Shown: one piece after another, positions 3,477 to 54,224 of the stretch | Position numbering within the stretch: the first letter of the stretch is position 1 | Layout: each line of letters opens with the position of its first letter | Assembly (NCBI GenBank): GCA_004297825.1 | Contig: SCSX01000036.1 | Location: forward strand, 172,680-236,679 | Direction: 5' to 3' | Length of the DNA: 64,000 nucleotides | DNA from: Spirochaetota bacterium | Lineage (GTDB): Bacteria; Spirochaetota; UBA4802; UBA5368 | Translations under genes and position numbers: made by a program | Notes under the pieces: model-generated | The model's input: only the letters and a program-made list of their open reading frames with translations | Told to the model about the DNA's origin: nothing | Database searches by the model: none

Positions 3477-3480
3477 GTAC

Positions 3481-3519
3481 AACGGAATTTAACAGGGATA
3501 TACAGGATGAGCAGGATTA
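3481..3519 (-). repeat. ATCCTGT-rich repeat element, copy E1-left (minus orientation)
   Basis: The reverse complement reads AATCCTGCTCATCCTGTATATCCCTGTTAAATTCCGTT. This matches copies at 3891-3930, 4139-4183 and 19105-19143 (rc), consensus AATCCTGTTAATCCTGTcTATCCCTGTTaAAT. Confidence 0.7.
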
Positions 3520-3890
3520 GTTAATTCTTTCAATGACAGTCTTCTATATTCCAGCCGCGAATTACCAAAATTGATAAGCAGTCCAACCTCAATACCGGTT
3601 GCCTTGAGGTAATTTATGATCTGTGCCTGATGTTCCGGTAATAGTTTTTTTATGGCCTTCAACTCGACTATGACCTTATCTTCTATCAATAAATCAGAAT
3701 AATATTCTCCGACACAATGATCTCTGAACATTACTTTGATCGGGAATTGCTTTTTTACGGAAAGTCCTTTTTCCTTTAATGTCAGAAATAGGGCATGTTC
3801 ATAAACAGATTCAAGAAAACCCACCCCAAGTTCGTTGATAACTTCAAACGAACATCCGATGACCATTTTTGATATTTCCTCATATTTCAT
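3489..3890 (-). CDS. GxxExxY family protein (PD-(D/E)XK-like). Start chosen at MKYEEISK; the annotated ORF runs on to 3923 through the flanking repeat.
   Basis: GVGFLESVYEHAL contains the G-x-x-E-x-x-Y motif and ...GIEVGLLINFG is typical of the family. AT-rich codon usage unlike the flanks. Both ends of the ORF run into copies of the ATCCTGT repeat element. Confidence 0.7.
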   Translation of the reverse strand: MKYEEISKMVIGCSFEVINELGVGFLESVYEHALFLTLKEKGLSVKKQFPIKVMFRDHCVGEYYSDLLIEDKVIVELKAIKKLLPEHQAQIINYLKATGIEVGLLINFGNSRLEYRRLSLKELTNPAHPVYPC

Positions 3891-3930
3891 ATCCTGTAAT
3901 CCTATATATCCCTGATAAATCAATTCGTAG
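3891..3930 (+). repeat. ATCCTGT-rich repeat element, copy E1-right (plus orientation)
   Basis: ATCCTGTAATCCTATATATCCCTGATAAATCAATTCGTAG. It is inverted relative to 3481-3519, so the two bracket the GxxExxY gene. Confidence 0.7.
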
Positions 3931-4090
3931 TCATAGCAGTCATATTAAATGAAAATAGATATCTGCATCTATTAATACTTTTCAAAGGGTTTTTTCCTGT
4001 GCTTTTTTCTGGGAAATTTGCCTTTTTTAATTTGTAGCACAGACATAGAGATCAGCGGTTTAGCTGTCGTGGAATTAAAGGAAATTAACA

Positions 4091-4183
4091 AGGCTGTACA
4101 GGATGGTCAGGATGAGTGGATTCTCTCATACCGCCCCCCAATCCTGTTAATCCTGTCTATCCCTGTTGAATCAATTCGTAAAG
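4091..4183. repeat. Complete palindromic copy (E2) of the ATCCTGT element, with no cargo gene
   Basis: Left arm 4091-4119 is AGGCTGTACAGGATGGTCAGGATGAGTGG (minus-type). Right arm 4139-4183 is CAATCCTGTTAATCCTGTCTATCCCTGTTGAATCAATTCGTAAAG. A ~20-nt spacer separates them, and the tail ...AATCAATTCGTA is shared with copy 3891-3930. Confidence 0.7.
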
Positions 4184-4251
4184 TATGTTGTCTTATGAGG
4201 TATATTTCTGTCGCCCGGAGCGAAGTCAGACGACGTCAAATGTTTCTTCCT

Positions 4252-4872
4252 CTATAATTTCAACTGAGTATCAGTCACATGCTTTTCCCTGTAAGGAAAT
4301 CCCTTTTCAAACTCCTCCAGCTCCGTGGTGTCGATCTTAAACACCGGATCTTCATGGAATTTTCCCCGGACCCCCTTCAATCCGTTTTCCTGCAGCTCCA
4401 GCGCCATGAACGCATCGAAATTTGCGCCCTCCGATGTCGATATGCCATATTTCTGGGCATTTTCGAATCCAAATCGGTGGTAATACGCGGGGTTTCCAAA
4501 TATTATAATCGCCTTGTATCCCATGCTTTTCGCGCACGCAATCGAATGCCTCATCAATTGCGATCCGACGCCCTTCCCCTGGTGCGACGGCAGTACGCTC
4601 AAGGGCCCCATGCATAGTACTTCGTGCGCGATGCCTGTATCGTCAACCACGCTCGCTTTCGAATACACGATGTTGCCGATTATTTTGCCTTCATGAATCG
4701 CGACCATATCCAGCTCGGCGATAAAGGCGGGAACCTGACGCAGATTGCGAAGAAGGAGATGCTCGTCGCAGCCGAGTTTATAGATATCCCAGAAGGCTTC
4801 GCGGGTCAGGAATTCTGTTTCCTGGAAGTCGGCGGGGGTTGAGAGGCGTATGGTTGGGTTCATGGTTTTCAT
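4252..4872 (-). CDS. GNAT family N-acetyltransferase (YhbS-like)
   Basis: 206 aa containing the acetyl-CoA-binding motif ...QGKGVGSQLMRHSIACAKSMGYKAIIIFGNPAYYHRFGF. An alternative start at MNPTIRL (4863) is possible. Confidence 0.8.
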   Translation of the reverse strand: MKTMNPTIRLSTPADFQETEFLTREAFWDIYKLGCDEHLLLRNLRQVPAFIAELDMVAIHEGKIIGNIVYSKASVVDDTGIAHEVLCMGPLSVLPSHQGKGVGSQLMRHSIACAKSMGYKAIIIFGNPAYYHRFGFENAQKYGISTSEGANFDAFMALELQENGLKGVRGKFHEDPVFKIDTTELEEFEKGFPYREKHVTDTQLKL

Positions 4873-4995
4873 TCCTTATCTTTAATCGATTGTGTTGTCC
4901 AGTTTTATTGGGGAACGGCATAGTAGCGTCCTGATTGTACTAAATACTCTTTGGAAACAATCTTCTATAGCAGGGCAGCGGCGGTAATTATCAAC

Positions 4996-6234
4996 TCATG
5001 CCTTTTTTATATCCTTTTGAACTTGGTGCCATGATCCTTTGGTTTTTCTAATTTGGCGATTGATAATAATGCTATCATAATCATTGGGATCGAATTCCGA
5101 TTCACATTCTGAGGAAGGGGCATTTTGAATACTTTTTATTTCATCTATGATATCTTTATCATCTGCATGCTTGCTGGAATTACTATCAAAGTTTTTCATT
5201 CTCCAACGTGGTGCGTATGTATCCCACAACCTTGCAACAAGTAATCCGTGCTCCTTCGGTGGGCTGGGGGCGAATGAAAATAATCCTTTATCTTTTTCAC
5301 TCTGCGGATACTCTGAATAATATTTATTAATTTCACGAAGATCAGCTTTCAATTTATTTCCCCATACAAACTCTTGATCATCTCTTAAAAATAAAGGCGC
5401 ACATTTTTGGTGCAATTTGTCAGAAGAAACAAATAACATACAGAATGGAAGGTATAACAGATAAGCCATATCAATACGATTTGATGGCCGATGAGAAGAT
5501 ATTAAATTTGCGGCAATAGCTATTTGGAAAAATATTTCGACTATCATTATATATGCCACATACGGGGCATGCATGACTAGAGGTGGGCAATTAGCTAGAT
5601 AATATCGTTTTAGTATTTTAGGGTGTAAGTGTTCGGGGACGTTAAATAGTATTATGGCATATTTTAACAAATCAATACCATTCTCTCTTTTCGTAACAAT
5701 ATTTTCTGATATTGTTTTTGCTTCTTTGAGAGATCTGCAAGACTTGTTACTTATTCCCAGTTGACGTAATATATTTGCAAAAGACTCCAGATCAAGTGCT
5801 TTTAGTGATTCCCGCCATAAATACGCATAATCACGCTCAATGCTAGAAAACTCGCGTTTTTGCCATCGCGAAAATACTATAGCTTCAGGTGTATTTTCAA
5901 ATACTACATTATGTTTATTATTACTTTTAACATACCGACCCCCTGCAATTGGGATTTGTCCGGTCATAGGAACTCGAGAACCAAGAAGATTATTTATTGC
6001 CAATATATCATGATGAATATTTGGGCCGCCATGCATCTCAGGGAATTTATCAGCAATAATACCAACTTCTTGCTCAGTTGAACGACCTTCTCGAATTGAT
6101 TTGCTTAAATCAGCCAAAGTTTCAATATAAAAAATAGGGCAGATGTTCGCTATAAAAAAATGATCAAACCAAACTGATTCATCAACACTAAGCGATTGCA
6201 GAAATGATTTATCAAAAAGAGATATTGGCCCCAT
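4996..6234 (-). CDS. Hypothetical protein, 412 aa, strongly AT-rich (foreign composition); I recognise no domain
   Basis: Long uninterrupted ORF in DNA far more AT-rich than the ~65% GC background. Lys/Asn/Ile-rich, with no motif I can assign. It lies inside the repeat-bounded island. Confidence 0.6.
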   Translation of the reverse strand: MGPISLFDKSFLQSLSVDESVWFDHFFIANICPIFYIETLADLSKSIREGRSTEQEVGIIADKFPEMHGGPNIHHDILAINNLLGSRVPMTGQIPIAGGRYVKSNNKHNVVFENTPEAIVFSRWQKREFSSIERDYAYLWRESLKALDLESFANILRQLGISNKSCRSLKEAKTISENIVTKRENGIDLLKYAIILFNVPEHLHPKILKRYYLANCPPLVMHAPYVAYIMIVEIFFQIAIAANLISSHRPSNRIDMAYLLYLPFCMLFVSSDKLHQKCAPLFLRDDQEFVWGNKLKADLREINKYYSEYPQSEKDKGLFSFAPSPPKEHGLLVARLWDTYAPRWRMKNFDSNSSKHADDKDIIDEIKSIQNAPSSECESEFDPNDYDSIIINRQIRKTKGSWHQVQKDIKKA

Positions 6235-6284
6235 TGCTTTTTTATCTCATCGGAGATTCAAATATCTTTGGTTAAGTTTTCCAG

Positions 6285-6320
6285 TAATATACAGGAATTT
6301 AACAGATTCACTATCCCCAA
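6285..6320 (-). repeat. Partial copy (E4) of the ATCCTGT element at the right edge of the AT-rich island
   Basis: CAGGAATTTAACAG (6293-6306) is the reverse complement of the CTGTTAAATTCCTG core found in E1-left, and it is followed by ...ATTCACTATCC. Confidence 0.45.
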
Positions 6321-7169
6321 CACACCCCCTTCCCTGGCGGGTCCGGTCTCGGCGTGCAATGGCGCTGCTCTTTATCTTAGTCACTACATATAACAAAAAT
6401 GTAATAAGTCAACCACAATTCCGCCTGTGTTGTGCGGACCCCCACCGGAAGTACAATCAAACAGCCTCCCTCTTGAAAAAAGGGCGGAGGCCGGCGGTTC
6501 CGATGCGCATGAGGGAGGGAAAAGCAGGGAATGCCGGTTGCGTGTAAAAGTTAACGTGCGGAAGGAGAAGATATCTCACCCGATGAGGCCGGGTTCGAAA
6601 TGACAAGGGTGGGGGCGGCCGATGCCGTCATTAAGCAATTCAGTCGATCGCATACAGGCCGGGAGGCTGGTTTTGTAATAGAACTTCTACAACCAGTCGC
6701 GGACACGGATGTCCGCGCAGCCGAGGCGGGCAGGATGCCCATTCGCAGGCTGCCAAATGAGGAGTATTTTTCAGTAACTCCGTTATTGCACATCCGGAAT
6801 CTTAAGCGCCGTCTCATTACAATTTGTAGTGTTTTGCAAACAGACCCTCGATCGCCGCGCCTTTGCGGCAAACCAAATCCGCCCACTGCGATGGACAGGA
6901 TGTCCAAGTGCCGGGCGCGCGACACGATGTCGCGTCTGCGCCCGGCGCTGAGCCAAATCCCACGTAGTGGGTTTGGCGAGAAAGGGCGGCCAAGGCCCTC
7001 GCGCCGCTTGAGCGAGGCCGGCGCTGACGCGACCTCCTGTCGCAGCGCCGGCATTAGGACATCCTGTCCGTCACGGCGGGGGGTGCAGGGGGTGTCCGCC
7101 GCACGACACCCCCTGCAAAAGCACGCTCCTGCCAGGGGCACTCCCGCAGGGGAAAGCGCAGCCCCGCAC

Positions 7170-7508
7170 TCAGCGTTTCTTCTTCCCGCCCTTCTTCACC
7201 ACCAGCTCATACGACATATCGATAAGCCTCTTCACCTCGCCGTCCGGCACCTCACCGTCAAGGATGATGGTGTTCCAGTGCACCTTGTTCATGTGGTACC
7301 CGGGGATGATTGACGAATAGCGCTCGCGCAGCTCCATCGCGAGAAATGGCTCGCACTTGAGGTTGATCCAGAGCGGTTTCGCTTCGAGCGCCACGAGCGC
7401 GAAAATTTTCCCGTTCACCTTCGCCGTGAGCACGTCGATCCCGAAGGGGAAATCCTCGTATGCTCCCTCTTTCGCAAGGAGGTGTGCGCGGAGTTTTTTA
7501 AGGTTCAT
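7170..7508 (-). CDS. MmcQ/YjbR family DNA-binding protein
   Basis: MNLKKLRAHLLAKEGAYEDFPFG...KVHWNTIILDG matches the YjbR family. The start is placed at the internal Met; the ORF extends to 7556. Confidence 0.75.
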   Translation of the reverse strand: MNLKKLRAHLLAKEGAYEDFPFGIDVLTAKVNGKIFALVALEAKPLWINLKCEPFLAMELRERYSSIIPGYHMNKVHWNTIILDGEVPDGEVKRLIDMSYELVVKKGGKKKR

Positions 7509-18272: not shown

Positions 18273-18440
18273 TTTAACCGCGAATGCACGCGAATAGACG
18301 CGAATGGTCTTGGGAAATTCGCGTTTATTGTTGATCATTCGAGGCCTGATTCGCTCGTTCATCCCCAACAGGCTGTGTTAGTAACCGCGAATAGACGCGA
18401 ACGATCTTTTACAATTCGCGTTCATTGGCGTGCATTCGCG
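18273..18440. repeat. Tandem pair of ~55-nt hairpin elements built from CGCGAAT / ATTCGCG units
   Basis: Copy A 18275-18335 is AACCGCGAATGCACGCGAATAGACGCGAATGGTCTTGGGAAATTCGCGTTTATTG. Copy B 18376-18440 is AACCGCGAATAGACGCGAACGATCTTTTACAATTCGCGTTCATTGGCGTGCATTCGCGGTT. Each has an 8-bp stem ACGCGAAT/ATTCGCGT, and the outer ends form a long-range inverted repeat AACCGCGAATGCACGC...GCGTGCATTCGCGGTT. Confidence 0.7.
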
Positions 18441-18457
18441 GTTGCCTTCTTTATCCA

Positions 18458-19104: not shown

Positions 19105-19200
19105 AATTTATTTAACAGGGATATTCAGGATTAACAGGATAGGGTGTCGATATTGAATGAATCCGTTCATCCTGTCTATCCTGTACATCTTTGTTAATTG
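19105..19200. repeat. Complete palindromic copy (E3) of the ATCCTGT element in the pncB-pncA spacer
   Basis: Left arm 19105-19143, read as its reverse complement, is CCCTATCCTGTTAATCCTGAATATCCCTGTTAAATAAAT. A 15-nt spacer follows. Right arm 19159-19200 is AATCCGTTCATCCTGTCTATCCTGTACATCTTTGTTAATTG. Confidence 0.7.
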
Positions 19201-32418: not shown

Positions 32419-32443
32419 GCCCCCCGACCCCCCGAAGGGGGGC
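32419..32443. repeat. Left G/C-hairpin inverted repeat flanking the DUF559 cassette
   Basis: GCCCCCCGACCCCCCGAAGGGGGGC. It matches the reverse complement of 32856-32880 (GCCCCCCGACCCCCCAGAGGGGGGC) at 23 of 25 positions. Confidence 0.75.
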
Positions 32444-32485
32444 AATAGCGCGATCAAATGTTAAAAGTTCACAAGGTGCGAATAT

Positions 32486-32848
32486 TTGAATGCTGGAATA
32501 AAATCACCTCGATACGTGATTGAGCTTGCAAGGGGAATGAGGAAAAATCCAACTGCGGCAGAAAAGAAGTTATGGGAAGAATTGAAAGAGAAAAGGTTCG
32601 ACGGATTAAAATTCAGGAATCAGCATCCCGTGTTCAGGTATATACTTGATTTCTATTGTCATGAAAAGAAGCTGGCAATTGAGGTTGATGGCGATATCCA
32701 TATTAATCAAAAGGAAACTGATGCGTATCGTGAGGACTACTTGAAAAGTCTTGGAATTGTAACAGTGCGCGTGAAGAATATCGATATTGAAGATAGAATT
32801 GAGGAAGTTCTTATCAGGATAAGAAGCGAATTGCGTGATTTGTATTGA
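32486..32848 (+). CDS. DUF559 (Vsr-like) endonuclease-domain protein
   Basis: ...RKNPTAAEKKLWEELKEKRFDGLKFRNQHPVFRYILDFYCHEKKLAIEVDGDIH... is typical of DUF559. The gene is AT-rich relative to its flanks. Confidence 0.75.
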   Translation: MNAGIKSPRYVIELARGMRKNPTAAEKKLWEELKEKRFDGLKFRNQHPVFRYILDFYCHEKKLAIEVDGDIHINQKETDAYREDYLKSLGIVTVRVKNIDIEDRIEEVLIRIRSELRDLY

Positions 32849-32855
32849 TTGCCAT

Positions 32856-32880
32856 GCCCCCCTCTGGGGGGTCGGGGGGC
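32856..32880. repeat. Right G/C-hairpin inverted repeat flanking the DUF559 cassette
   Basis: GCCCCCCTCTGGGGGGTCGGGGGGC, the inverted partner of 32419-32443. Confidence 0.75.
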
Positions 32881-47452: not shown

Positions 47453-47742
47453 TACTTCACGTTGTCGTGAATCAGGTATGTGTTCTTTAAAAAGTTTTGG
47501 GTGTTTGACGGCATACTGCATTAAGTTACAAAGCAGCTTGACTCCGAGTAGCGGGTCTTGTAACTTGTAACTGCATAGCTTACAAGCTCTATACAGCGAA
47601 ATTTCACATATCGATTCCCAGAACGCTGGGGATTTTTTATCTCCTAATACTGGTTCTTTGAAAACTGAGTAGTATTGTTTTGTTGAAAGTCTCACGTCAA
47701 TTTTCGTAACTAAAACTCTCAATATAGTCTTTTCTATCACGG

Positions 47743-49285
<1,543 letters not shown>

Positions 49286-49442
49286 AAAGGAAGATTTAAT
49301 GAACACAATTAACCCAAGTGGGACTTGGAAAGGCAATACTGCTCAGTTTTGAGAGAACCAGAGTTCTCGAAACCGTTATTAAAATCACGGGTGGAGCGAA
49401 ACTATAGGCCGATGCTTGTAGTTTAGAAGAGAGTAAGGGCAT

Positions 49443-49516
49443 GGGCCTGTAGCTCAGTTGGTTAGAGCGTGCGACTGATAATCGCAAGGTCGGTGGTTCG
49501 ACTCCACTCAGGCCCA
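49443..49516 (+). tRNA. tRNA-Ile (GAT)
   Basis: GGGCCTGTAGCTCAGTTGGTTAGAGCGTGCGACTGATAATCGCAAGGTCGGTGGTTCGACTCCACTCAGGCCCA. The anticodon loop CTGATAA gives GAT. It lies in the 16S-23S spacer. Confidence 0.9.
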
Positions 49517-49557
49517 ATTCGACAAGGTTCTTTGCAAGCTTGAATTGGGGGGTGTAG

Positions 49558-49630
49558 CTCAGTTGGGAGAGCGACTGCCTTGCACGCAGTAGGTCATCGG
49601 TTCGAACCCGTTCACCTCCAGATGCAGAAG
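49558..49630 (+). tRNA. tRNA-Ala (TGC)
   Basis: GGGGGTGTAGCTCAGTTGGGAGAGCG...CTTGCACG.... It has the G3:U70 Ala identity pair and anticodon TGC. Confidence 0.9.
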
Positions 49631-49730
49631 TTGAAATAACTCTGCTATGTTCTTTGAAAATTGTAATAGTCCGAGCACAAACACAAGTACGAGCGACCTG
49701 GTTTGCTGAAAACAGCAGACGAAATAATAT

Positions 49731-52748
<3,018 letters not shown>

Positions 52749-52753
52749 TAAAA

Positions 52754-52790
52754 ACCCCGATGGAATTTTTTCCATCGGGGTTTTTTCATG
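52754..52790 (+). terminator. Intrinsic terminator immediately after the 23S
   Basis: AAAACCCCGATGGAATTTTTTCCATCGGGGTTTTTTC: a 10-bp perfect stem followed by a U-tract. Confidence 0.8.
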
Positions 52791-53157
52791 TGCGCACGGT
52801 AGGGCGCACGCTTGGTGGTGAAAGTCCACTACGGAGGCTGATAGCACCAACCGTTAGCTCAAGGCACCAGAAGTAGGCGCTTGAGGCGAGGGTGTCCATC
52901 GCGAGGTGGCCGGCTTTCTGCCTCGGCCGGCATTAGTGCGTCCATGCACGTCAGAATCCGAAGGAAGCCGGCGGCAAAGTCTCGGCCCGACGAACAGGCA
53001 AGCCGTTTTTGTGCGTCCTGCACCGGTCTTGCACGCCGCCTTCATGGCGGCAGAAATCACATGAGGCCGGTCAGACCGGGCGAGTTTGCCTAACAAAACG
53101 AAGCCCTATGCTATCAAGGGTCTGGCAGGTAGATGTTCCCATCCGTGGTGGTTGCAA

Positions 53158-53370: not shown

Positions 53371-53436
53371 AAATTTTAAGCCTCTAGCCTGGGGGCTTTT
53401 TGTCGGGGAAGGGCAGCTTCATTATGGAGAACATTA
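53371..53436. repeat. Repeat family R3, long copy upstream of and overlapping the ECF sigma start
   Basis: AAATTTTAAGCCTCTAGCCTGGGGGCTTTTTGTCGGGGAAGGGCAGCTTCATTATGGAGAACA. It is nearly identical to 54548-54613. Confidence 0.7.
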
Positions 53437-54224
53437 CCGAAAAACCGGTTCTCTCACAAGAGCACTTTGCCGAAATCTACACAGACAATTTCAACAAGGT
53501 TTTCTCCTTTTCGCTTCGTATTGTCGGTGACACGCATCTTGCTGAAGATATTACCCAAGAAACGTTTATTCAGGTATATCATAACTACCACACATTCAGA
53601 GAAGAAAGTTTGCTTAGCACATGGATTCTGACAATCACCCGGAACATCTGCTATCGCAATATCAGGAAGGCTAAAAGAAGTTCGTTCCGTTCGATCGAAA
53701 ATCTGATCAAAACAAAAAGTTCACCATATCATGAATCCCCGGATGGTATGTTTGAGAAACAATATTATACCGATCAGATCAAGGAAGGATGCCTGCTCGG
53801 ACTTCTGAGATCTCTCTCATTCTTCCAGCGCAGCGCCTTTATTCTTAATGTTCTGAACGATCTTCCCGTAACCGTGGTTTCGACGATTCTTGAAAAATCG
53901 GATAATTCCACGCGGATTCTGATCCATAGGGCGAGACACAATCTAAAGAATTTTTTGTGCGGCAATTGTTCTCTTTATCAGAAGGGGAATGCTTGCCGAT
54001 GCGAAAATCTGATCGAGTTCTCACTTAAACAAGGATGGATAAAAAAGTATAATCCCGCGATTCCGATTAAAAAGGTCGAACAAGAACTCAAGGAGTTCAA
54101 AGACGAAATTCTCCTTTATAAAACACTCCCCGACAACGGCGCTGACGAAACGCTTGCCGCTCGATGCGCGACGATGATAAAAAATCACGCTTCAATAATA
54201 TTTTCCGACAAAAAAGTGAAATAA
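53424..54224 (+). CDS. ECF-type sigma-70 family sigma factor with a Cys-rich C-terminal extension
   Basis: Region 2 ...DITQETFIQVYHNYHTF...LSTWILTITRNICYRNIRK. Region 4 ...LNDLPVTVVSTILEKSDNSTRILIHRARHNL. An extra ~90-aa tail carries C-x2-C-x9-C-x-C (CGNCSLYQKGNACRC). Start chosen at MENITEKP. Confidence 0.8.
   Translation: MENITEKPVLSQEHFAEIYTDNFNKVFSFSLRIVGDTHLAEDITQETFIQVYHNYHTFREESLLSTWILTITRNICYRNIRKAKRSSFRSIENLIKTKSSPYHESPDGMFEKQYYTDQIKEGCLLGLLRSLSFFQRSAFILNVLNDLPVTVVSTILEKSDNSTRILIHRARHNLKNFLCGNCSLYQKGNACRCENLIEFSLKQGWIKKYNPAIPIKKVEQELKEFKDEILLYKTLPDNGADETLAARCATMIKNHASIIFSDKKVK

Follow-up and report, generated by a model that had tools for sequence, protein, structure and literature searches.

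Introduction

In the REPIN/RAYT system, a small enzyme gene is coupled to short palindromic doublets that are dispersed in many copies in intergenic regions: the enzyme (RAYT, REP-associated tyrosine transposase) is a Y1 transposase of the IS200/IS605 type, its gene is flanked by inverted copies of the same repetitive extragenic palindromic (REP) sequence, and different enzyme lineages pair with different repeat sequences (PMC3116915, PMC3337134). Another group of short intergenic repeats comprises the short tandemly repeated repetitive (STRR) heptamers of cyanobacteria and the TAACTGA repeats, the latter common to Beggiatoaceae, Cyanobacteria and Bacteroidetes with 'no mechanism evident' (PMC4679880). 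Here we describe, in a 64,000-nt stretch of DNA from a Spirochaetota bacterium (contig SCSX01000036.1 of assembly GCA_004297825.1, positions 172,680 to 236,679; hereafter the window), a gene of the GxxExxY family that lies between inverted arrays of 7-nt units, together with gene-less hairpins built from the same arrays.

The locus resembles REPIN/RAYT in that inverted copies of one repeat stand on both sides of a small enzyme gene, in that different enzyme lineages pair with different repeat sequences and, in form only, in the dispersal of many short palindromic doublets in intergenic regions. It differs in the enzyme, which is a 130-aa nuclease of the PD-(D/E)XK type (PF13366) in place of a transposase, and in the repeat, where a single REP hairpin bearing a GTAG-type motif is replaced by arrays of three to four tandem 7-nt units. 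The distribution differs as well, for RAYTs are typically single-copy and vertically inherited, whereas GxxExxY genes are multi-copy, highly transferable across phyla and found inside operons, and one repeat sequence is common to many phyla. With the STRR and TAACTGA repeats (PMC4679880) the locus shares intergenic tandem 7-nt units placed near start codons and a unit common to distant phyla, but those repeats are direct and no associated gene has been proposed for them, whereas here inverted pairs are tied to a nuclease family. REPIN/RAYT is the nearest precedent, as are the TAACTGA heptamer repeats. Tentatively, and with somewhat less than an even chance of being right, we read the locus as one copy of a selfish partnership between a nuclease and a repeat, REPIN/RAYT-like or homing-like in character.

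Results

Inverted arrays of 7-nt units bracket a GxxExxY gene

The GxxExxY gene (3489-3890, minus strand) encodes 133 aa, with its ATG at 3890 and its stop codon at 3489-3491, and matches both TIGR04256 and PF13366. An initial annotation of the window had proposed that it is bracketed by inverted copies of an ATCCTGT-rich element of about 35 nt, and we confirm these arms at 3487-3518 and 3889-3920. The 3' arm relative to the gene (3487-3518; ATTTAACAGGGATATACAGGATGAGCAGGATT, or AATCCTGCTCATCCTGTATATCCCTGTTAAAT in gene sense) contains three ATCCTG-type units, to which 3519-3527 adds a degenerate fourth, and has a conserved outer flank that reaches 3481; the 5' arm (3889-3920; ATATCCTGTAATCCTATATATCCCTGATAAAT, or ATTTATCAGGGATATATAGGATTACAGGATAT in gene sense, with the ATG directly after it) contains three CAGGAT-type units that include AGGA, with a conserved outer flank that reaches 3930. 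Each arm at this site (site 1) is about 32 nt long and consists of three 7-nt units, ACAGGAT or, on the other strand, ATCCTGT, which are separated by spacers of 2-3 nt and so recur with a period of about 9-10 nt; complementarity between the arms is 91% over 22 nt. In gene sense, the whole reads 5'-ATTTATCAGGGAT-AT-ATAGGAT-TA-CAGGAT-AT, then ATG...gene...AATCCTG-CTC-ATCCTG-TAT-ATCCCTG-TTAA-3'.

Both ends of the open reading frame (ORF) had been described as running into the repeats. This is correct for the C-terminus, whose last nine codons (NPAHPVYPC) and stop are encoded by the 3' arm. It does not apply to the N-terminus of the deposited 133-aa protein (P0001), which uses the ATG at 3890, abutting the inner edge of the 5' arm; the 5' arm is read through only in a longer ORF that starts at a TTG (3923). 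The two-unit pattern has five matches in the window against 0.2 expected, a number reached in none of 100 shuffles, and in a predicted fold of a 455-nt RNA spanning the site, the 5' and 3' arms pair in both the minimum-free-energy (MFE) and the centroid structure. The GC content of the gene is about 35%, compared with about 60% in its surroundings. Low GC (0.34-0.42) characterizes the stretch from 3480 to 6300, which holds the GxxExxY unit, a GNAT acetyltransferase gene (4252-4872, minus strand) and a 412-aa ORF without a Pfam or NCBIfam match (4996-6234, minus strand), and which may be a horizontally acquired islet.

The protein is a predicted minimal PD-(D/E)XK nuclease

The protein is 100% identical to P0001, deposited as 'GxxExxY protein [Spirochaetota bacterium]', and matches TIGR04256 over profile positions 2-115 of 116 (3e-42; 143.7 bits, cut-off 35) and PF13366 (PDDEXK_3; 9e-43; 145.8 bits, cut-off 22). 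It carries the motif G24-F-L-E27-S-V-Y30, the catalytic residues D66 and E76-L-K78, and Q90-x3-Y94, and in an alignment with 39 homologues the residues E27, D66, E76, K78, Q90 and Y94 are invariant. An AlphaFold (AF2) model with a predicted local distance difference test (pLDDT) score of 90 comprises a bare PD-(D/E)XK core, whose neighbours in Foldseek are Cas4 (SSO0001), lambda and alkaline exonucleases, tRNA-splicing endonucleases and Hjc. The profile matches, the intact catalytic set and the predicted fold bear out the earlier assignment of the ORF to the PD-(D/E)XK superfamily, and because E27, D66, E76-x-K78 and Q90-x3-Y94 are invariant, we predict a minimal, catalytically intact nuclease under purifying selection.

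The protein sequence has no match in PDB, PADLOC or PHROGs. The family is large, with 27,550 clusters at 50% identity in an exhaustive profile search of a representative library of 1.84 billion proteins, and in a survey covering PF13366 its function is entered as 'Unknown', with multiple transfers between divisions noted (PMC3424549). In the literature searched, GxxExxY is named only in passing; neither a mobility mechanism nor a link between gene and repeat is described, in agreement with the initial annotation, which knew of no mobility mechanism for these genes.

Repeat arms accompany GxxExxY genes in independent clades

We retrieved from metagenomes the DNA around 80 relatives of the gene (42-71% identity), 72 of which had usable flanks, and called an arm wherever at least two exact tandem units lay within about 110 nt of the gene. 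Arm density within this distance of the 72 genes was 11.0/kb, compared with 0.275/kb at more than 300 nt, a 40-fold difference, and 62 of the 72 loci had an arm on one side or both, including 42 with an arm on each side. The association between GxxExxY genes and the repeat that had been anticipated from the window is thus general, being seen in these densities, in the number of loci with an arm and in the arm-encoded termini of the closest homologues. The commonest layout of the 42 two-sided loci was arm-gene-arm (L-gene-R; 25 loci), followed by a gene between complete hairpins (R-gene-L; 11 loci) and by arm-gene-arm-loop-arm (L-gene-L; 6 loci).

Arm sequence also enters the proteins themselves. 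Most of the 120 closest homologues (63-74% identity), whose named taxa include Nitrospirota, Verrucomicrobia, Anaerolineales, Delta- and Gammaproteobacteria and Spirochaetota, have arm-encoded termini: their MDKQDGQD-like N-termini are in-frame readings of CATGGAT-AAA-CAGGAT-GGA-CAGGAT, and their C-termini are NPVHPVHPC, from an ATCCTG arm, or KLNMDTQDEQD or KDFKHG, from a second CAGGAT arm. Arm-encoded tails are likewise found among diverse best matches of the family, both from CGCGGAT units (MNADERR and IRVHPRESA) and from CAGGAT units read in three frames (NPVNPVNPV, ANPVILSK and DRIGRM). More distant relatives have the same architecture with other units (CACGGAT/CGCGGAT, GGGGAT or CACAGAT), and on plasmids or chromids the units are CGCGAAG in Sphingomonas, where the gene lies between fabD and fabG, and CACAGAGA in Bernardetia. 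Unit type partly tracks protein similarity, and the arms tightly abut the ORF in independent clades.

GxxExxY genes are mostly co-directional with their neighbours (26 of 32 upstream, 27 of 31 downstream). A scan for promoters and terminators found no sigma-70-like promoter upstream of the gene, a weak negative, as spirochaete promoters may differ. About 20 proteins of approximately 260-280 aa (including P0241, P0242, P0246, P0249 and P0256) carry two GxxExxY domains and are probably tandem gene copies read through the intervening arm. Read-through has also fused two other proteins, P0341 and P0381, to a prepilin-like protein by way of an NPVNPVNPV or ANPVILSK tail. Repeats may also be arrayed in tandem: three identical hairpins with an 87-nt period adjoin a GxxExxY gene in L259 (3660-4900), and four single arms with a 130-nt period occur in L167 (4620-5040), from a Chloroflexia metagenome-assembled genome (MAG). 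These arrays indicate local amplification.

Gene-less hairpins are dispersed REP-like elements

Two gene-less hairpins occupy further sites in the window. Site 2 (4083-4171; arms 4083-4114 and 4140-4171, 25-nt loop) lies about 80 nt downstream of the GNAT acetyltransferase gene, relative to its minus-strand orientation, and site 3 (19110-19199; arms 19110-19141 and 19168-19199, 26-nt loop) lies between isochorismatase-family and nicotinate phosphoribosyltransferase-like genes, both on the minus strand. The initial annotation had recognized the inverted pair at both sites and had given the gap as 15-20 nt; the pairs are there, and the gap is 25-26 nt between 32-nt arms, shorter if the degenerate fourth unit is counted. 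Site 2 has outer flanks in common with site 1 (4077-4128 and 4148-4180), and a direct repeat (3481-3532 and 4077-4128; 79% over 52 nt) links the two. Predicted folding energies are -28 to -32 kcal/mol for site 2 (z -2.2 to -2.6) and -31 to -35 kcal/mol for site 3 (z -4.8 to -5.1). This repeat runs on beyond the arm, as if site 2 were a deletion derivative that kept the last 14 nt of the gene, but it is no evidence of a deletion, because site 3 shares the stretch, which can be read as the degenerate fourth unit (ATCCACT, ATCCGTT or ATTAACT).

A second family of tandem-unit palindromes (unit ACGCGAAT, repeated every 10 nt) makes up a pair of neighbouring hairpins (18276-18443) downstream of the isochorismatase-family gene, in the same operon as site 3 and one intergenic spacer away from it. 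Their architecture is that of the CAGGAT hairpins with a different unit, and the window has no cognate gene for them. The CGCGAAG units beside the Sphingomonas GxxExxY gene resemble ACGCGAAT units.

We scanned one genome per species with the pattern ATCCTGNNNATCCTGNNNATCCCTG, which returned at least 120 loci. The matches listed span at least 10 phyla, namely Acidobacteriota (many of them Pyrinomonadaceae), Chloroflexota, Desulfobacterota, Lentisphaerota, Latescibacterota, Planctomycetota, Verrucomicrobiota, Bacteroidota, Sumerlaeota and Cloacimonadota, and include at least 81 close inverted arm pairs with loops of -8 to 197 nt. The order of units is constant (CAGGGAT..CAGGAT..CAGGAT, loop, ATCCTG..ATCCTG..ATCCCTG), and outer modules, AATTAA/TTAATT or ATTCAAA/TTTGAAT, are conserved as parts of the element, not duplications of a target site. 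A strict polarity set by outer modules A (TTTGAATC) and B (TTAATTTC) was considered and rejected, with 20 A-B or B-A, 12 B-B and no A-A combinations among 55.

In the 120 hairpin loci listed (approximately 0.9 Mb) we found no GxxExxY gene and no other cargo inside the hairpin. The neighbouring genes look like ordinary housekeeping genes, and a preference for small or mobile genes was ruled out, as ORFs shorter than 160 aa numbered 34 of 165 near the hairpins and 149 of 437 far from them. Since hairpins thus lie among housekeeping genes of many phyla, with no GxxExxY ORF in the loci listed, the hairpin is a REP-like dispersed intergenic element that is far commoner than the gene.

Hairpins of the CAGGGAT type and the CATGGAT type, as defined by the outer unit, also occur gene-free in viral contigs, and the CATGGAT variant is mostly gene-free. 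A first viral scan with the pattern ATCCTGNNNATCCTGNNNATCC was too loose and mostly matched coding tandem repeats. One viral contig from IMG/VR (L061, 1180-1640) has, ahead of a terminase-like gene, a mosaic spacer in which five or more different tandem-unit modules, including CAGGGAT/CAGGAT, are combined and which is duplicated as a 178-nt block. Hairpin loops often hold nested palindromes in turn: in Pyrinomonadaceae and other Acidobacteriota (L123, L159, L184, L195, L200, L209, L221 and L223), those within CAGGAT hairpins are made of other tandem units, such as TGCAAAG, TTCATTG and GAATGATGAAT, and modules appear to insert into, or to grow from, the centres of existing hairpins.

Insertion at the hsdR-hsdM junction

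In nine of 70 loci, the GxxExxY gene has hsdR on one side and hsdM on the other, within a single family of type I restriction-modification (R-M) operons; this junction is a hot spot for different small inserts. It is a 12-nt gap without arms in L350, holds arm-GxxExxY-arm in L249 and arm-gene-arm-loop-arm in L241, and is occupied by a gene-less hairpin of another unit type (CACGGAATA) in L352, by a four-helix-bundle (PF05635) gene in L349 and by a KilA-N gene in L351, the last two without arms. At an orthologous site, the nuclease gene is therefore absent in L350 and present in L249 and L241. In a further locus, L263, the insert is flanked on either side by the opening 30 nt of hsdM, the two copies differing at synonymous positions, as co-conversion from a donor operon would leave. 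As to arms beside PF05635 genes, the one example, L349, has none; tblastn against plasmids gave a single match, and phmmer on all the fetched loci yielded no others.

These comparisons bear on two proposals of the initial annotation. To it, the gene-less sites looked like empty versions of site 1; they are indeed the same palindromic element, but a reading of them as sites awaiting the gene is not supported, for the orthologous empty site in L350, compared with L249, has no hairpin. It had also called the arrangement MITE-like (miniature inverted-repeat transposable element), which is apt for its form: inverted repeats, multiple copies (three sites in the window) and a short gene-less form beside a longer gene-carrying form. 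The likeness ends there. The sole gene between the arms is the 133-aa nuclease, which matches no transposase family in Pfam or NCBIfam, so that no transposase of a known class is present; no direct duplication of the target site was seen when L249 was set against the empty L350, the ends of the element being undefined; and in 11 of 42 loci the gene lies between complete hairpins.

Free-standing homing endonuclease genes are known, and the homing endonuclease I-Ssp6803I belongs to the PD-(D/E)XK class. As in such systems, a small nuclease gene is found here co-directionally in short gaps between conserved genes, is present or absent at orthologous positions (L350 against L249), shows signs of co-conversion (L263) and encodes a restriction-enzyme fold. 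Unlike in those systems, the constant feature is the repeat arms and not a host-gene target sequence, and gene-less arms persist in the same genome.

The units are conserved, the stem is not

The two arms of a hairpin have an identity of 0.97 over their units; over the spacers it is 0.61, compared with 0.55 +/- 0.02 for arms of unrelated loci (shuffled partners). Mismatches between gene-flanking arms are G:U-compatible on the sense strand in 31 cases and antisense-only wobbles in 37, and in a second count in 9 and 10, respectively; selection for RNA structure is thus unsupported by tests of both G:U bias and spacer co-variation. As the units are conserved, the spacers hardly co-vary and there is no G:U bias, the sequence comparisons favour recognition of specific sequence on double- or single-stranded DNA, and not RNA structure, as the constraint on the arms. 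The 9-10 bp spacing would place successive units on one face of the helix.

A second bracketed gene and other features of the window

A DUF559 gene (32486-32848, plus strand; PF04480, 1.4e-30), low in GC and located between alanine racemase and ClpA/B-like ATPase genes, is bracketed by an inverted repeat of its own, with 26-nt arms containing C6/G6 blocks (32419-32444 and 32855-32880; 92% complementary). The motif C6-N3-G6 occurs in the window only at these two flanks. We take the DUF559 protein to be a second mini-nuclease of the PD-(D/E)XK type, which suggests that the pattern of a mini-nuclease between short-unit arrays extends beyond GxxExxY.

Elsewhere in the window, a long inverted repeat (6879-7083; 64-nt arms, 78% complementary, separated by 77 nt) is found where GC is high and no gene is assigned; the ORF at 6600-7313 has no Pfam match. 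A complete rRNA operon (47736-53138) comprises 16S, two tRNAs and 23S; an intervening sequence in this 23S gene was ruled out, as the approximately 90 extra nt relative to the Rfam model are small helix expansions with neither an ORF nor arms. A group II intron fragment (D1-D4; 53051-53138) just downstream of 23S is followed by a sigma-70-family ORF (53400-54224).

Discussion

We propose that the arms, in which three to four 7-nt units recur at intervals of about one helical turn and which are inverted on both sides of the gene, would serve as sequence-specific DNA recognition sites of the GxxExxY nuclease. Binding or cleavage at these arrays could promote recombinational copying of the DNA between or beside the arms, in a homing-like or REPIN/RAYT-like manner. 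The gene-bearing unit would then be the autonomous form, and the far commoner gene-less hairpins in the spacers of housekeeping operons would be its non-autonomous copies or its targets. The gene itself is apparently promoterless and is inserted co-directionally in tiny intergenic gaps, where the purine-rich upstream arm contributes Shine-Dalgarno-like motifs (AGGA) and, in a good number of relatives, even the ATG.

We infer that the nuclease recognizes the units and is the agent by which the gene or the hairpins move, because arms are associated 40-fold with GxxExxY genes, encode their termini and recur in the same architecture with other units; because the units are conserved where the stem is not, the active site is invariant and the ORF abuts the arms; and because of the presence or absence of the gene between hsdR and hsdM, the hsdM repeat in L263 and the parallel offered by DUF559. 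Several observations weigh against a partnership of this kind. The layouts of two-sided loci are heterogeneous, and unit type and protein clade agree only in part, as illustrated by L331, which has CACGGAT units yet clusters with CAGGAT-type proteins. Gene-less hairpins persist in the window beside an apparently intact nuclease gene, which speaks against efficient homing into them; the 120 hairpin loci listed are devoid of the gene, and the comparison of L249 with L350 yielded no target-site duplication. In addition, hairpins of the CAGGAT type stand beside small selfish toxin-antitoxin modules in L137 (840-1750; higB/higA-like, from a Dehalococcoidia MAG) and in L122 (4700-7500; HEPN/MNT and a PaREP1-like ORF, from another MAG), so that genes other than GxxExxY can lie between hairpins.

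A different account is the main alternative, although we consider it rather unlikely: the hairpins would be independent REP-like elements, kept by the host or moved by another enzyme, and small promoterless selfish genes would accumulate in or beside them, whether as neutral insertion sites, as homology for recombination between copies or as a source of expression signals (AGGA, ATG, a stem at the mRNA end), and the nuclease would act in something unrelated, such as defence. That hairpins vastly outnumber genes and sit among ordinary housekeeping genes, that none of the 120 loci listed holds the gene, that CAGGGAT- and CATGGAT-type hairpins are gene-free in viral contigs, that toxin-antitoxin modules are flanked by hairpins in L137 and L122, that unit type and protein clade are only partly correlated and that 9 of 70 loci fall in type I R-M operons are all expected if the gene is mere cargo, as is the gene-less hairpin of another unit type in L352 at a junction where four-helix-bundle and KilA-N genes occur without arms. 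These armless inserts count on the other side as well; and an accidental landing pad sits poorly with a 40-fold association across many unrelated contexts, with ORFs that tightly abut the arms in independent clades and leave no variable loop remnants, with the lack of any other cargo inside the hairpin in the 120 loci listed, and with an orthologous empty site that has no hairpin, which implies that the arms came with the gene or earlier.

If the arms instead acted in RNA, in the manner of 23S rRNA intervening sequences, they would pair in the transcript around the ORF, for RNase III processing, exonuclease protection or translational control, and the gene-less hairpins would be stabilizers or attenuators of operon RNA. 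The pairing of the arms in both the MFE and centroid folds of the 455-nt transcript, window hairpins that fold better than shuffles (z -2.2 to -5.1), the co-direction of gene and neighbours, the lack of a detected sigma-70-like promoter and an upstream arm with AGGA motifs and often the ATG are all consistent with this, but we judge it improbable given that the G:U excess is absent (31 vs 37 and 9 vs 10), that spacers barely co-vary (0.61 vs 0.55), that the unit sequence is kept across phyla, for which a constraint on structure alone has no need, and that no Rfam family matches at the gathering threshold. Integrons offer another comparison, with hairpins as attC-like sites and GxxExxY genes as promoterless cassettes moved by a tyrosine-recombinase integrase. 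The core sites of attC are RYYYAAC and GTTRRRY, which the outer ends in the window (ATTTAAC and GTTAAAT) fit; hairpin length (about 60-150 nt) and imperfect palindromy are attC-like, hairpin-gene-hairpin layouts occur, and the genes are apparently promoterless and co-directional with their neighbours. We nevertheless regard an integron-like origin as very improbable: most hairpins are solitary between housekeeping genes and not in cassette arrays, the outer ends of most other copies (TTAATT, TTTGAAT) misfit the core consensus, the tandem hairpins of L259 have no ORF between them, the layout seen most often places the gene within the hairpin, arms keep their sequence across phyla where attC sites do not, and no recombinase match in Pfam was found among 16 window ORFs scanned (10 in 6.6-21.7 kb, three at 3.5-6.2 kb and three at 31-35 kb).

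For genome annotation, gene callers routinely extend GxxExxY ORFs through the arms, creating 'MDKQDGQD' and 'NPVHPVHPC' tails, and fuse them to neighbours such as pilin-like proteins. For the biology of the family, the partnership reading links a large group of proteins to intergenic palindromes, and gives each a testable hypothesis; tandem-unit palindromes are abundant in little-studied phyla, including Acidobacteriota, Chloroflexota, Desulfobacterota and Lentisphaerota. A broader proposal, which we hold to be doubtful at present, is that GxxExxY proteins, and perhaps DUF559 proteins, are the enzymes of unrecognized minimal mobile elements, in which a restriction-fold nuclease of about 130 aa would read arrays of 7-nt units and, by cleavage-induced recombination, copy itself and thousands of gene-less palindromes into intergenic spacers across phyla, with no transposase or recombinase of a known class. 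The partnership reading, if confirmed, would bring a further class of enzyme to the few systems that generate REP-like repeats, and would explain how heptamer-type repeats come to be common to distant phyla.

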